The notes beneath the pieces were generated by a model that saw only the letters and a program-made list of their open reading frames with translations, searched no databases and was not told the DNA's origin. From positions 192,001 through 256,000 of the forward strand of contig CAVYTU010000017.1 in assembly GCA_963771465.1 (NCBI GenBank): DNA of 64,000 bases, in the 5' to 3' direction. This stretch comes from an uncultured delta proteobacterium. Lineage in GTDB: Bacteria > Desulfobacterota > Binatia > UBA9968. The translations under genes were made by a program, and so were the position numbers. Positions 43,554-48,628 of the stretch are shown piece by piece; the first letter of the stretch is position 1; each line of letters starts with the position of its first letter.

Positions 43554-44186
43554 CTAACTTTCCAGCAGCTCGGTGTTCCAATAGGAGACATCGATGGTAT
43601 TGAGAAAGGGCGCCCATTCTTTATAGCGGGACATGCTGAAAGTTTCCTGCATGAACGGGGTCCACTGTGGTTTGAAAGGCTTGCGCACGAGCGGCATGTT
43701 GGCCTGCTGTGGGGTGCGGCCGCCTTTGCGATGATTGCACTCGTGGCAGGAGCAGACGACATTCTCCCAAACCGACGTGCCGCCCTGGGAGCGGGGAATG
43801 ACATGATCGAGATTGAGCTCTTGGCGTGGCAGCCGCCAGCCACAGTACTGGCAAGTGCATTTATCTCGGGCGTAGATGTTATAGCGGCTAAAGCGCACCT
43901 GACGCTTGGGCACTCGGTCGTAGGTGACGAGTAGAATAACCCGCGGCACCCGGATCACTCGGTTGACCAAACCGACCGTCTCAGCGTGGGCGGAAATCGA
44001 CAGATCGCTCCAGCTGTTAAAATCAAAAGTCTGGTACTGCTCGTTCACCGCTTTGGCGATGCCCTGATAGAGCAGCACAAAAGCGCGCCGTACCGACGTG
44101 ACATGGATCGGCAAATAGGAACGATTGAGGATCAGAACCTTGGTGTTGAGGACCGTGAATGCTGGCGCGGTGGCCGGATAACTCAT
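43554..44186 (-). CDS. HNH endonuclease (McrA-like)
   Basis: VLILNRSY, NIYARD..TCQYCG, LDHVIPRSQGG..WENVVCSCHECNHRKG. Confidence 0.9.
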   Translation of the reverse strand: MSYPATAPAFTVLNTKVLILNRSYLPIHVTSVRRAFVLLYQGIAKAVNEQYQTFDFNSWSDLSISAHAETVGLVNRVIRVPRVILLVTYDRVPKRQVRFSRYNIYARDKCTCQYCGWRLPRQELNLDHVIPRSQGGTSVWENVVCSCHECNHRKGGRTPQQANMPLVRKPFKPQWTPFMQETFSMSRYKEWAPFLNTIDVSYWNTELLES

Positions 44187-44435: not shown

Positions 44436-45944
44436 ATGAAACAGGAAATTTTTATCAATTCGACGCCCCAGGAGAGCCGCATCGCCATCATGGAAGATGG
44501 TGTGCTCGCTGAATTCCTCATCGAAAGAAAAGAGGAAATGGGCGTTGCGGGGAATATCTATAAAGGGAAGGTCGCGCGCGTGCTTCCCGGCATGCAAGCC
44601 GCCTTCATCGATATGGGCATGGAAAAGGCCGGCTTTTTACATGCATCGGATTTTTCGACCGAACTGGACGAAATACAATTGACCGGCGACGATGTCGAGT
44701 TCGCGGAGGCGCCCAAGCCGCCACCGTCTTCATCGCGTCGTTTACCGTTGGAAAAACAGCTTTCGCGTAATGAAGAAATTCTCGTCCAGGTTGCCAAGGA
44801 TCCGCTCGGCACCAAGGGCGCGCGGGTTACCTGTCATGTCTCCTTGCCGGGCCGCTACATGGTTTACATGCCGGGCACCAAGCACATCGGTATCTCGCGC
44901 CGCATCGAGAGTGATGAAGAGCGCAAGCGGCTGAAGGAGATCGCCCAGTCGCTCGGCACTGAAAAGGGTGGATTTATCCTGCGCACCGCCTGCGAAGGGC
45001 TTAGCAAAAGGGAAATTCAAAGAGATCTGGCCTTTCTCACCAAACTGTGGGAGGGGATTCAGAAACGGGCCGCCAGCGCGGCGGCGCCGACGCTGATTCA
45101 CCAGGATCTCGATCTCATCGCGCGCACGCTGCGCGATTTTTTTACCGCCGATACCGATCAAGTCGTCATTGATTCGCCGAAGGATCACCGCCGGGTGGTC
45201 GATTTCGTGCGTCACTTCATGAGCCGGCACAAAGCGAAGATCGTGCTCTATAACGACAAGGAACCGCTCTTCGAGCAATATGCCATCGAAGAAAAGGTCG
45301 TCAAAGCGCTGGACCGACGCGTGTGGCTACGTTCCGGCGGCTACCTGATCATCGAACGCACCGAGGCGCTGACGGCTGTGGACGTAAACACCGGCCGCTT
45401 CGTCGGCAAACGCAATCAGGAAGACACGATCATCAAAACTAACATGGAGGCGGTGCAGGAGGTGGTGCGCCAGCTCCGGCTGCGCAACGTCGGTGGCCTC
45501 ATCATCATTGACTTCATCGACATGGAAAAAGAGGGCAATCGCAAGAAGGTATACGATGCTTTGAGAGAGGCGCTGAAGAAAGACAAAGCGCGCACCAACA
45601 TTCTCAAAATATCCGAGCTCGGTTTGGTCGAGATGACGCGCCAGCGCACGCGCGAGAGCTTGGAGAATCAGCTGCTCCGTTCGTGCCCGCACTGCGACGG
45701 GCGCGGTCGGATCAAGTCAGCGCCGACGATTGCTTATGACGTGCTACGCGCGATCAAGCGCCAGCAGCCGAGCTTCGACGGCGGCAAAAATATCGTCGTG
45801 CGCTTGCACCCGGACATCGCCAACTTCCTTTACGACGAGAAAAATAACAGCTTGGAAAATCTCGAACGCGAGATCAATCGCCGCATCATCATCAAAGCCA
45901 GCCAGGAGCTGCACCACGAGAAGTATGAAATCTCCGAGGCGTAA
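44436..45944 (+). CDS. rng: Ribonuclease G (Rne/Rng family)
   Basis: GNIYKGKV..VLPGMQAAF, DVNTG, LRNVGGLIIIDFIDM, CPHC.G; 502 aa with no RNase E scaffold. Confidence 0.92.
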   Translation: MKQEIFINSTPQESRIAIMEDGVLAEFLIERKEEMGVAGNIYKGKVARVLPGMQAAFIDMGMEKAGFLHASDFSTELDEIQLTGDDVEFAEAPKPPPSSSRRLPLEKQLSRNEEILVQVAKDPLGTKGARVTCHVSLPGRYMVYMPGTKHIGISRRIESDEERKRLKEIAQSLGTEKGGFILRTACEGLSKREIQRDLAFLTKLWEGIQKRAASAAAPTLIHQDLDLIARTLRDFFTADTDQVVIDSPKDHRRVVDFVRHFMSRHKAKIVLYNDKEPLFEQYAIEEKVVKALDRRVWLRSGGYLIIERTEALTAVDVNTGRFVGKRNQEDTIIKTNMEAVQEVVRQLRLRNVGGLIIIDFIDMEKEGNRKKVYDALREALKKDKARTNILKISELGLVEMTRQRTRESLENQLLRSCPHCDGRGRIKSAPTIAYDVLRAIKRQQPSFDGGKNIVVRLHPDIANFLYDEKNNSLENLEREINRRIIIKASQELHHEKYEISEA

Positions 45945-46002
45945 GAACTCGGAGATTTAACCGCGCAAAACTTTCGGACTTCCGCAGTTAAAACTGAAAC
46001 AG

Positions 46003-46181
46003 CGAGTGAGGCACGATCCTTCCGTAGTGAAGACAATCGGCCTGTGCCTCTGAGCCGGCAACCAACATCGTTGTCTGGCGAGCGATCGTTGGCAGGCAAT
46101 GGAACGGCTGCCAACCAGAGAAAATGACTTTGCACCCGCAGCGTTAGGTGTCTTCAGTACTCCAGGCTCGTGCCACACTCG
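46003..46181 (+). ncRNA. Candidate structured non-coding RNA (about 180 nt), family not recognised
   Basis: Ends pair over about 33 positions with symmetric mismatches (CGAGTG-A-GGCACGA-T-CCT-TCC-GTA-G-TGAAGACA / TGTCTTCA-G-TAC-TCC-AGG-C-TCGTGCC-A-CACTCG), plus inner helices; strand inferred from a GCGA tetraloop. Confidence 0.6.
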
Positions 46182-46214
46182 GGCACACATTTACTCCACC
46201 TGCGGAAGCTGGGT

Positions 46215-46871
46215 TCAATTCTTCGGCCAGGCGTGGATGTCGGCGCCTTTACGCAGTTTTTTTTCGTCGTAAATTTCGTAGTGGGTGAACGCTGTGATCG
46301 GCCGGCGCGGTTTGGCTTTCGGCCAACTGCTGGCGTGGCCGATGGGCATGACCCAGAGCAGTCTTAGCTCATCGGGTACTTTGAATAATTCTCTTAGCTC
46401 CGGTTCGACTTCTTCACGCACGGAAACCCAGACCGTGCCGAGATTCATGCTCGCGGCCGCCAGCATCATTTGCTGCACGGAGTTGGCGATGCTCGCCTGA
46501 AACAGTTTCTCTCGGTCGGACGGTTGGCGCGTGGTTAGATAGACCTGCTTCGTGCGCGCCTCGCCGCAGGCGAGCACGAGGACGCTCACGTCGCCGACGT
46601 AGTCTTTTTTCAACCCCTTATAATGCACCGGGTCTTCTTTCTTCCGATCGCGCCACTCTTTGGAATAGATTTCACGCACCAACTTCATTTTCTTGCGGTC
46701 ACGCGTGACGACGAATTCCCACGGTTGCGTATTGGCGCCTGAGGGCGCCCAGCGGGCGGCTTCAAGGATGGTGTTCAATTGCTGCTGGGTGACTTTGCCG
46801 GTTTTGTAGACGCGCACGCTGCGGCGGTGTTGCATGATTTTGAGCAAATTTTCAGTGTCCATAGTTTTCAT
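46215..46871 (-). CDS. Nitroreductase-family flavoprotein
   Basis: RRSVRVY, AARWAPSGANTQPWEFVV, MMLAA..MNLGTVW, PIGH. Confidence 0.9.
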   Translation of the reverse strand: MKTMDTENLLKIMQHRRSVRVYKTGKVTQQQLNTILEAARWAPSGANTQPWEFVVTRDRKKMKLVREIYSKEWRDRKKEDPVHYKGLKKDYVGDVSVLVLACGEARTKQVYLTTRQPSDREKLFQASIANSVQQMMLAAASMNLGTVWVSVREEVEPELRELFKVPDELRLLWVMPIGHASSWPKAKPRRPITAFTHYEIYDEKKLRKGADIHAWPKN

Positions 46872-46885
46872 TCCAAATGACGAAG

Positions 46886-48628
46886 CTAATTGAGCGTGAC
46901 TTGGCTGCGCCGACCGAACCACCAGGCGATGAAAATCAGCGGTGTCAAAACCAGGGTCATGAGCAGGGTGACAGCGGAAGCTTTGTTGATATTGCCGCTG
47001 TACCAATAGCTCCAGATGACGGCCGGCAGCGTGATGTTGTCGTGCACCGCGAGAAAGACAGCGGCGGTGAGCTCGCGGTAGACCAGCAACGCAGACCATA
47101 TCCACACCGAAAAAAGCGTCGGCCGGATGAGCGGGAACAAAACTCTCCAGGCGGTGCGGCTGTTAGAGAGACCGGCGACGAAAGCCGCCTCTTCCAGCTC
47201 GCGATGGATTTGCAGCAGCGAGCCGTTGAGGGCGCGGGTCGCGAAGGCCAGGCGGGCGATGATATAGACGATGGCGATGATCCACACCGAGCCGTAAAGC
47301 GGAATCGCGGTGCCGAGCACAAAAAGCGAAAGCAATAAGGCGCCGATGGCGAGAATCACTTCCGGCAATGCCTGCGGCAAGAAGGCGCCGAATTCAAGCG
47401 CATAGCGAATGCGGCTGCGGGAGCGCACGATGAGCCAAGAAATCGTAAAGGCCAACAGCAGAACCACTAGCGGCACCAGCGCTACCAAAATCGCCGTATT
47501 CCAAAGTCCGCGCAGAGCCAACTGCCAGTCCATGCCATAAAAATTCGCCAGCGAGAGCTGTCCCATCGTCGCCAGAGACGGCGGCACGAAATATGGCATG
47601 AGCGCCGCGTAAGCGATTAATAACAGCGGCAGGAGTTTGGAGATGAATGCGTAGCCGGCGATAAAACTCCAAGCGGCGAGGGACCAATTGCCCAAGTCTA
47701 ACAGGGCCGGTTTGTAGCCTTTACCGGTGACCACTTCGAAACGGTGACTCTGGCGCAGCACTTGGCTGTACCAAAGCGTAAGCAGCGCGGCGACGACGAT
47801 CATGAAAGCGCCGACCACGCCGGTGATACCATATTCCGGCAGCCCCGCGCCTTGGGGATGGACTTTCAAGTAAATAAACGTGCTAAGCAGGTATACCCGG
47901 TTACCGAGGCCCAGGATCGCCGGGATGTCGAACGTGGCGAGGCCGATGGTGAATATGTAGATGACCGCCGCCATGATCCCGGGGCGGGCTAACGGGAGGG
48001 TCACGCGGCGAATGATTTTCGTGTAATTCATGCCGTGCACGCGCGCCGCTTCTTCCAGCGTCGGATTCATGGCGCGAAACATTTGCGCGGTAAGTATGAA
48101 CGCCAGCGCGGAAAGACTTAGCCCTTGTACGAATCCCATGCCGATGGGTGTGGCGATATTGATCGGCGCTTCGCTTAGCTCCAATAGGTTGATGAGCCAG
48201 CGATTTATGATGCCGATGCGCGGATGCGCGATCATGGTCCAACCCATCGCGGTGTAGATACCGGGAATCAAAAGTCCCAGAGTCATGAGTGCGTAGACGA
48301 GAGTCTTTCCGGGGATGCTGGTGCGCTCCACCAGCCAGGCGATGGGCAGACCGAAAAGCAGCGCGAAAAACGTCGCGGTGACAGTAAAGAGGAGCGTATT
48401 GGCAACCACCCGGTAGACGAACGGATCACTGACGACCTCGTGGTAGTTAGCAAATGTAAAGGTGGCGCTGGGGGTGCCGAAGGCGCCCTTTTGCAGGCTG
48501 ATCCAAAACATCACGATTACGAGGATGAAAATCACCGCCATCGGGATCATCGCCACAGACAAGAGCGCGGACGAGGTGTGACTGCGCGCGCGGAACAGAG
48601 CCGGCAATCTCAAAACCGCCTGTTTCAT
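46886..48628 (-). CDS. ABC transporter permease (FbpB/ThiP-type, duplicated TM domain)
   Basis: Two EAA loops (LEEAARVHG, LEEAAFVAG), AWLVERT. Confidence 0.9.
   Translation of the reverse strand: MKQAVLRLPALFRARSHTSSALLSVAMIPMAVIFILVIVMFWISLQKGAFGTPSATFTFANYHEVVSDPFVYRVVANTLLFTVTATFFALLFGLPIAWLVERTSIPGKTLVYALMTLGLLIPGIYTAMGWTMIAHPRIGIINRWLINLLELSEAPINIATPIGMGFVQGLSLSALAFILTAQMFRAMNPTLEEAARVHGMNYTKIIRRVTLPLARPGIMAAVIYIFTIGLATFDIPAILGLGNRVYLLSTFIYLKVHPQGAGLPEYGITGVVGAFMIVVAALLTLWYSQVLRQSHRFEVVTGKGYKPALLDLGNWSLAAWSFIAGYAFISKLLPLLLIAYAALMPYFVPPSLATMGQLSLANFYGMDWQLALRGLWNTAILVALVPLVVLLLAFTISWLIVRSRSRIRYALEFGAFLPQALPEVILAIGALLLSLFVLGTAIPLYGSVWIIAIVYIIARLAFATRALNGSLLQIHRELEEAAFVAGLSNSRTAWRVLFPLIRPTLFSVWIWSALLVYRELTAAVFLAVHDNITLPAVIWSYWYSGNINKASAVTLLMTLVLTPLIFIAWWFGRRSQVTLN

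Follow-up and report, generated by a model that had tools for sequence, protein, structure and literature searches.

A structured RNA candidate downstream of rng in an uncultured delta proteobacterium is very probably a decayed copy of a dispersed MITE family

Introduction

ERIC/IRU and Correia elements are prokaryotic MITEs with long stem-loops. A T-N-A triplet, or T-A within a 4-letter palindrome, is the target choice of the IS5/PIF-Harbinger and IS630 families; to our knowledge, IS200/IS605 elements and REPINs make neither terminal inverted repeats (TIRs) nor flanking direct repeats.

PMC10969869 describes prokaryotic MITEs as shorter than 500 bp, with TIRs of ~4-30 bp and with direct repeats in younger copies, and it reports that MITE transcripts form stable stem-loops, naming QMITE and RUP. 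MITEs are reported from nearly 1700 prokaryotic genera (PMC11602168), so that an unstudied lineage can be expected to contain a new family. Dispersed repeats may themselves serve as targets, as is reported for REPs and IS110-family elements (PMC12288879 and PMC11208160).

Here, we analyzed a window of 64,000 nt (the whole stretch of DNA under study) from the genome of an uncultured delta proteobacterium (6.9 Mb, 19 contigs, ~56% G+C). An earlier note, made from the letters of this window, had singled out the gap between the rng and nitroreductase genes as an orphan structured RNA and offered three readings of it: the gap could encode a divergent 6S RNA, represent a new ncRNA class, or contain a small non-autonomous element. 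We found that the third of these stands and that the first two do not, and we consider it very probable that the element is a decayed copy of a dispersed, non-autonomous and non-coding MITE of ~240 bp.

The family compares closely with MITEs that carry long stem-loops (ERIC/IRU, Correia, RUP, and the QMITEs of Coxiella), since it is short and non-coding, has TIRs and flanking direct repeats, occurs in tens of dispersed and mostly intergenic copies with a stable predicted stem-loop, and includes deletion derivatives as well as copies into which another IS has inserted. Unlike those MITEs, it is not AT-rich, shows no similarity to any Rfam-curated repeat RNA, belongs to an uncultured soil lineage, and had no parent IS that our searches could find. 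Every MITE feature given in PMC10969869 is present in the family except a known parent IS, although its paired region (~35-bp stem plus TIR) exceeds the TIR of 4-30 bp described there.

Results

The rng-nitroreductase gap folds strongly on both strands

The gap at 45945-46214 is 270 nt long and lies between an RNase E/G family gene (rng, 44436-45944, plus strand) and a nitroreductase gene (46215-47105, minus strand), which are convergent as had been described. An HNH endonuclease ORF of 210 aa (HNH_5, E 3e-15; 43554-44186, minus strand) sits just upstream of rng. With a repeat finder, we recovered all of the inverted repeats listed in the earlier note at the positions it gave, including both arms of the long closing helix (33 nt, 82% complementary), the outer repeat that begins at 45979 and 46200, the inner stem 46088-46095/46108-46115, and the palindrome 46078-46093 (Table 1).

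When the plus strand of the gap was folded as RNA, the energy was -101.3 kcal/mol compared to -83.4 +/- 4.7 kcal/mol for 200 dinucleotide shuffles, none of which folded as well (z -3.84), which bears out the description of the region as highly structured. Since the sequence is a palindrome, the minus strand folds almost equally well (-101.0 kcal/mol, z -2.65), with 1/200 dinucleotide shuffles as good. Consensus folds of the two subfamilies described below are slightly better in the minus orientation (A, -101.8 vs -95.6 kcal/mol; B, -94.0 vs -87.7 kcal/mol), opposite to the copy at 45972-46214, for which the plus strand gives the better fold.

A consensus scan of 45850-46350 returned no promoter-like and no terminator-like sites, and the TAAAAC hexamer that had been read as -10-like was not borne out. 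The separate hairpin across the rng stop codon has no T-run and was therefore not called as a terminator by the scan. The Rfam check proposed in the earlier note gave no match for the region: at the gathering score, tRNA alone was matched in the whole 64,000-nt window, and at E<=10, 45850-46350 returned nothing of weight, only four chance matches that each fell far under the respective cut-off, one of which (a microRNA model) was caused by the hairpin at 45928-45958.

Table 1. Features of the element and its immediate surroundings (positions in the 64,000-nt window)
Feature	Position	Strand	Basis
Probable MITE copy, subfamily A, 243 bp	45972..46214	+ (= family-model orientation)	Profile match, model positions 4-241, 214 bits
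Left TIR, inner part	45979..45987	.	9 nt, 100% complementary to 46200-46208
Left arm of long subterminal stem, including conserved asymmetric internal loop	46003..46035	.	Covaries with right arm across 76 copies
Central region, small hairpins, subfamily-variable	46036..46148	.	Divergence from consensus
Right arm of long subterminal stem	46149..46181	.	Fold, repeat finder, covariation
Right TIR	46200..46214	.	Matches right end of family in alignment
T-N-A flank at right edge, which is the nitroreductase stop codon	46215..46217	-	ORF 46215-47105 including stop
Separate perfect 11-bp hairpin across rng stop codon, outside element	45928..45958	+	Repeat finder

The element belongs to a repeat family with about 90 loci in its own genome

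To count copies, we searched the element's own genome by BLAST and obtained 21 matches, of which the 20 other than the element itself were 73-87% identical to it, while a more permissive BLAST returned ~45 pieces. Three rounds of profile search gave 153 matches on both strands, corresponding to 91 loci on 17/19 contigs, and only one of these copies falls within the window. The sequence that had been called an orphan is thus repeated ~90 times in its own genome, and the count of genomic copies, which the earlier note had proposed with many dispersed copies pointing to a MITE, came out at 91 dispersed loci.

Near full length on the 241-position model are 52/91 loci, which divide into subfamily A (n=18, including the copy under study) and subfamily B (n=34). 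Full-length copies measure 196-277 bp, mostly 235-255 bp. Identity to the representative of the same subfamily is 63-87% in A and 64-82% in B, and identity to the representative of the other subfamily is ~41-56% at an equal length of ~245 bp. The ends of the copy at 45972-46214 were set by alignment to the 51 other near-full-length copies. Since its nearest relative in the genome is only 81% identical, this copy is old, and the outermost ~8 nt of its left end (45972-45979) have diverged from the family consensus; of its TIRs, only the inner 9 nt are still perfectly complementary. It is assigned to a MITE through its family and not through its own ends.

We found no sign of coding capacity in the family, whose longest open stretches average 74.6 aa compared to 71.2 aa in dinucleotide shuffles and share no conserved reading frame. 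A small-protein reading was rejected, as the long open stretches are compositional.

Subfamilies share their ends and differ in their target repeats

The ends of A and B are inverted copies of one shared core, and inward of these TIRs, each copy has a ~35-bp imperfect subterminal stem followed by a subfamily-specific center. The stem contains an asymmetric internal loop, the letters of which are almost invariant family-wide. In subfamily A, an identical T-N-A triplet stands on both sides of 6/13 readable copies, with one more copy showing it at a 1-nt offset. Since the middle letter of the triplet is C, G or A depending on the copy, the repeat is direct and not inverted. In subfamily B, an exact 4-letter palindrome is present at both ends in 7/26 anchored copies, and two further copies have a variant first letter of the palindrome, with the identical variant on either side. 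The palindrome is also found at both ends in 4/4 full-length young copies from a congener, G008. Both patterns, T-N-A in A and the palindrome in B and in the G008 subfamily, resemble the target choice described above for IS5/PIF-Harbinger and IS630.

We also observed that at 13/84 ends of 42 copies, as at this locus, a facing ORF has its stop codon within the flanking target repeat, at a distance of 1-2 nt, and duplication of such a target therefore preserves or supplies a stop codon. Three mini derivatives of ~75 nt, at G000:C12:170184, C14:417639 and C14:681789 (G000 being the element's own genome), have kept both ends and lack the stem and center.

Two subfamily-A copies outside the window carry an IS110-family element at the same position (~model position 76), at G000:C10:78937-80246 (L154) and G000:C15:1048751-1049394 (L155). 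The element has a Transposase_20 domain (E 1.4e-21) with the N-terminal part out of frame; one of its copies is 1310 bp long and the other is a rearranged remnant. At the junction, 48 nt on the left and 18 nt on the right are identical in both cases; elsewhere the two host copies differ from each other, as do their flanks, which suggests either that the IS110-family element targets the repeat site-specifically, as IS110 elements do with REPs, or that conversion has occurred. In being a dispersed extragenic palindrome that is targeted by an IS110-family element, the family is like REP/REPIN sequences; unlike those of the REP/REPIN (RAYT) system, it is much longer, has TIRs and direct repeats, and showed no copy beside any of the six Y1 loci fetched.

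The element is absent from the orthologous gap of 16 congeners

In 16/30 other genus genomes, the two flanks of the gap lie on one contig at a distance of 0-133 nt (15 genomes without the unpublished G005, which is also counted in our tallies of sampled genomes, B-type ends, and congeners with transposase-family elements), and nothing in these 16 gaps matches the element part of the query. Homologs downstream of rng, which the earlier note had suggested collecting from relatives, are therefore missing there. One further congener has 897 nt between the flanks, another has a short gap in which matches are fragmentary, and other genomes have the flanks on separate contigs.

We then read the junctions against the relatives G009, the flanks of which are 91% and 87% identical to those of the element's own genome, and G020. 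On the right side, homology to both restarts exactly at the 46215-46217 triplet that follows the element's last base. On the left side, the intergenic DNA is not alignable with the relatives, so there is no clean empty site and the left junction is unreadable, because the DNA of the relatives at this point is a different hairpin made of 7-nt units. The matching left copy of the T-N-A duplication is no longer recognizable at this locus, where the left triplet differs from the right one.

The 7-nt-unit hairpins, the arms of which are tandem runs, lie in the orthologous gap at ~760-885 of L016 (G009:C508) and ~88590-88700 of L020 (G020:C23). Similarly built hairpins of other 7-nt units are present in the element's own genome at G000:C8 ~105420 and G000:C14 ~74330, and these hairpins may form a second, REP-like class of repeats.

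Three other studies yielded DNA contigs that cover the insertion with 0 differences (X2, 45562-46900; X6, 45917-46350; X11, 45765-46285), and no contig joins across the element as an empty allele would.

Copy number and absence at the orthologous site refute the proposal that a single-copy ncRNA gene, be it a divergent 6S RNA or another, lies downstream of rng, and we now give this proposal next to no credence. The element does share with 6S RNA (RF00013) a length in the range of ~180-240 nt and a long closing helix with internal loops, and the 6S gene of this genome is unaccounted for, as RF00013 was without a match anywhere in it in a search that recovered 6S RNA in only 5/14 control genomes and hence says little. 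Unlike 6S RNA, however, the element is multi-copy and has no single-copy conserved locus, and 45850-46350 contains no RF00013 match even at E<=10 and no promoter-like site.

The family is confined to the genus and has recently been active

Sampling of 24 genus genomes recovered the family in 10, and it was found in 0/16 genomes of two further families in the order. A B-type end (<=2 mismatches) was found in 22/31 genus genomes at 1 to 40 each, compared to 1 in total for the reversed control. A worldwide scan with one genome per species returned at least 102 loci, and at least 45 of these were true family copies by profile; among the matches listed, all 45 true copies were in MAGs titled Deltaproteobacteria, uncultured Syntrophobacter, Candidatus Binatia, Thermodesulfobacteriota, or delta proteobacterium. 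As far as these comparisons reach, the family is mobile and does not extend beyond the genus.

In G008, a third subfamily has the ends and stem of the family with an entirely different center. Four of its copies are 92-94.5% alike, a figure that includes their unrelated flanks, which at the sequence level indicates a recent burst of the family in G008. Identical family ends also lie 110-240 nt from contig ends in G008 (C2, C3, C44, C58, C62 and C67), and the young subfamily apparently breaks that assembly.

Arm pairing is kept between subfamilies and decays within them

To examine the stem, we aligned 76 copies from the element's own genome, four congeners, and MAGs. Across this alignment, a 26-pair stem is 93.1% paired compared to 84.9% in shuffles (0/500 as high), with double changes at 17/26 pairs and in 155 cells compared to 42 expected, where counts refer to cells and not to events and most changes are at the level of subfamilies. 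Seven pairs switch Watson-Crick type, each in more than 10 copies. Controls in which the stem was slid reached 33-50% pairing, a comparison that favors the stem, as it was chosen by a pairing search on the same alignment. RNAalifold predicted only 13 pairs from all 76 copies because A and B are misaligned at their ends, and hence the stem was set by the pairing search. Divergence from the family consensus is 22-24% in unpaired and central columns and 12-16% in paired columns.

Within subfamilies, the picture was different. Paired cells make up 82.6% compared to 81.3% in shuffles within A, and 87.5% compared to 86.7% within B. In both subfamilies, a one-sided change more often breaks its pair than preserves it (A, 175 vs 90; B, 188 vs 135). 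Since G-U combinations are as frequent as A-C combinations (69 vs 60 in A, 83 vs 83 in B), neither strand is favored as RNA.

Strong pairing between subfamilies together with decay within them indicates that the hairpin is a property of the mobile element and is not preserved site by site. The simplest reading of the alignments is that arm complementarity would be kept only in the lineage of still-transposing copies and lost after insertion. The cause could be one protein that binds both arms, or a need for the folded strand. The covarying arms are far longer than the usual TIR of 4-30 bp, and a plain transposase-binding model does not require such length.

Copies lie mostly downstream of genes without preference for a strand

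On a crude ORF map that covers 84% of the genome, 79/91 loci are intergenic; 51 of these have tandem neighbors, 24 convergent ones, and only 4 divergent ones. Of the 33 full-length copies between tandem genes, 15 are oriented with the genes and 18 against them. This pattern is that of an element tolerated downstream of genes, without a strand-specific role.

In one RNA-library run (X12), a 287-nt contig spans 45891-46177 with 0 differences and leads from the 3' end of rng into the element. Contigs of this run over the neighboring genes are similarly shallow, strand and ends cannot be read from contigs, and carry-over of DNA is possible. Among RNA-library contigs, bins 45732-45839 are uncovered and coverage is thin up to ~45890 and over 46178-46256, neither of which counts as evidence in contigs. 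The X12 contig is compatible with read-through from rng, and transcription of the element is possible.

These data also bear on whether the copies might function as structured RNAs, either as sRNA genes or as regulators in 3'-UTRs, having been spread by transposition and then kept in many copies for their RNA role, which we regard as unlikely. Strong covariation of the long stem over 76 copies from several genomes, a fold that beats its shuffles, and the X12 contig would all fit such a role, as would the preference for sites downstream of genes, with 4/79 intergenic copies in divergent gaps; MITE-derived sRNAs of Coxiella are likewise cited in PMC10969869. However, pairing within subfamilies is barely above that of shuffles and pair-breaking changes dominate, the equal numbers of G-U and A-C mismatches and the 15 vs 18 orientations leave no strand favored, and the element has neither promoter- or terminator-like sites nor a matching Rfam family. 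The RNA-library contigs, in turn, are as shallow as those of genes, may reflect DNA carry-over, and give no strand or ends.

Searches for the mobilizing enzyme

We searched for a transposase that could move the family. PF01609, PF13586 and PF13359 had no matches in the element's own genome, and PF13586 gave three sub-threshold matches and nothing more across the genus. PF01609/PF13359 (IS4/IS5-type) elements are common in congeners, and their readable inverted ends are unrelated to those of the family. Further transposase loci (two in G008 and one each in G009 and G024) are without the family's end core, and PF13358 (IS630-type) had no matches in the five family-carrying genomes examined. Short end motifs paired within 6 kb were too noisy for use.

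Several candidates were set aside. Solitary ends, considered as possible ends of an autonomous element, proved to be ~75-nt mini derivatives or truncated copies, and the single end matches of G008, like a pair 1.37 kb apart in G024, belonged to ordinary copies of ~250 bp beside unrelated genes.

The transposase-family and end-motif searches of the element's own genome and of congeners thus returned no autonomous IS with matching ends, in assemblies that are drafts or MAGs, from which multi-copy IS elements are often missing. In this respect, the family is unlike IS5/PIF-Harbinger and IS630, as no transposase of these types with the family's ends was found in the genomes searched.

On the other hand, Y1_Tnp genes are present in all five examined carriers (2 in the element's own genome, 3 in G008, 9 in G009, 5 in G024 and 1 in G046). 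Since a DDE partner was not found, and since the hairpin and its asymmetric loop are kept by compensatory changes between subfamilies, we considered whether the family might be a REPIN- or IS200/IS605-type hairpin that is moved as single-stranded DNA by a hairpin-recognizing Y1 (HUH) transposase. This is very unlikely, as the family has TIRs together with flanking direct repeats, and no family copy was found in or beside any of the six Y1 loci that were fetched. In the element's own genome, contig C3, which holds one of the two Y1 genes, has no family locus, and the other Y1 gene is 7.2 kb from the nearest copy.

Discussion

Under the preferred reading as a decayed MITE copy, a DDE-type transposase acting in trans, with T-N-A or a 4-letter palindrome as its cutting site, would have mobilized the element, and the target pattern would fit that of the IS5/PIF-Harbinger and IS630 families. 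At this locus, insertion may have occurred on the nitroreductase stop codon, with the duplication retaining that stop codon. The long hairpin would then be the element's own extended inverted repeat, complementary only while its lineage transposes, and what remains here is probably a passive hairpin at the 3' end of both convergent transcripts, that of rng and that of the nitroreductase gene.

Since no DDE element with matching ends was found in the genomes searched, despite a recent burst in a congener, we also considered that a non-classical agent moves the family. Because the stem and its loop are kept through at least seven Watson-Crick-switching pairs, such an agent could use the folded hairpin, whether single-stranded DNA or RNA, as its recognized substrate or as a guide. 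We see only a small chance of this; if true, the family would be a hairpin-dependent mobile element of an undescribed kind that also lands on stop codons.

As a decayed MITE copy, the element removes one false candidate for a new structured RNA, and little rests on the locus itself. The result is also a warning that ~90 intergenic sequences of this genome that resemble "structured RNAs", and further ones in the genus, are one repeat. For specialists in mobile DNA, the target repeats at stop codons, the long covariation of the arms, and the repeated insertion site of an IS110-family element may be of interest. In the uncultured soil lineage that carries it, the family is of some use for tracing mobile-DNA activity.
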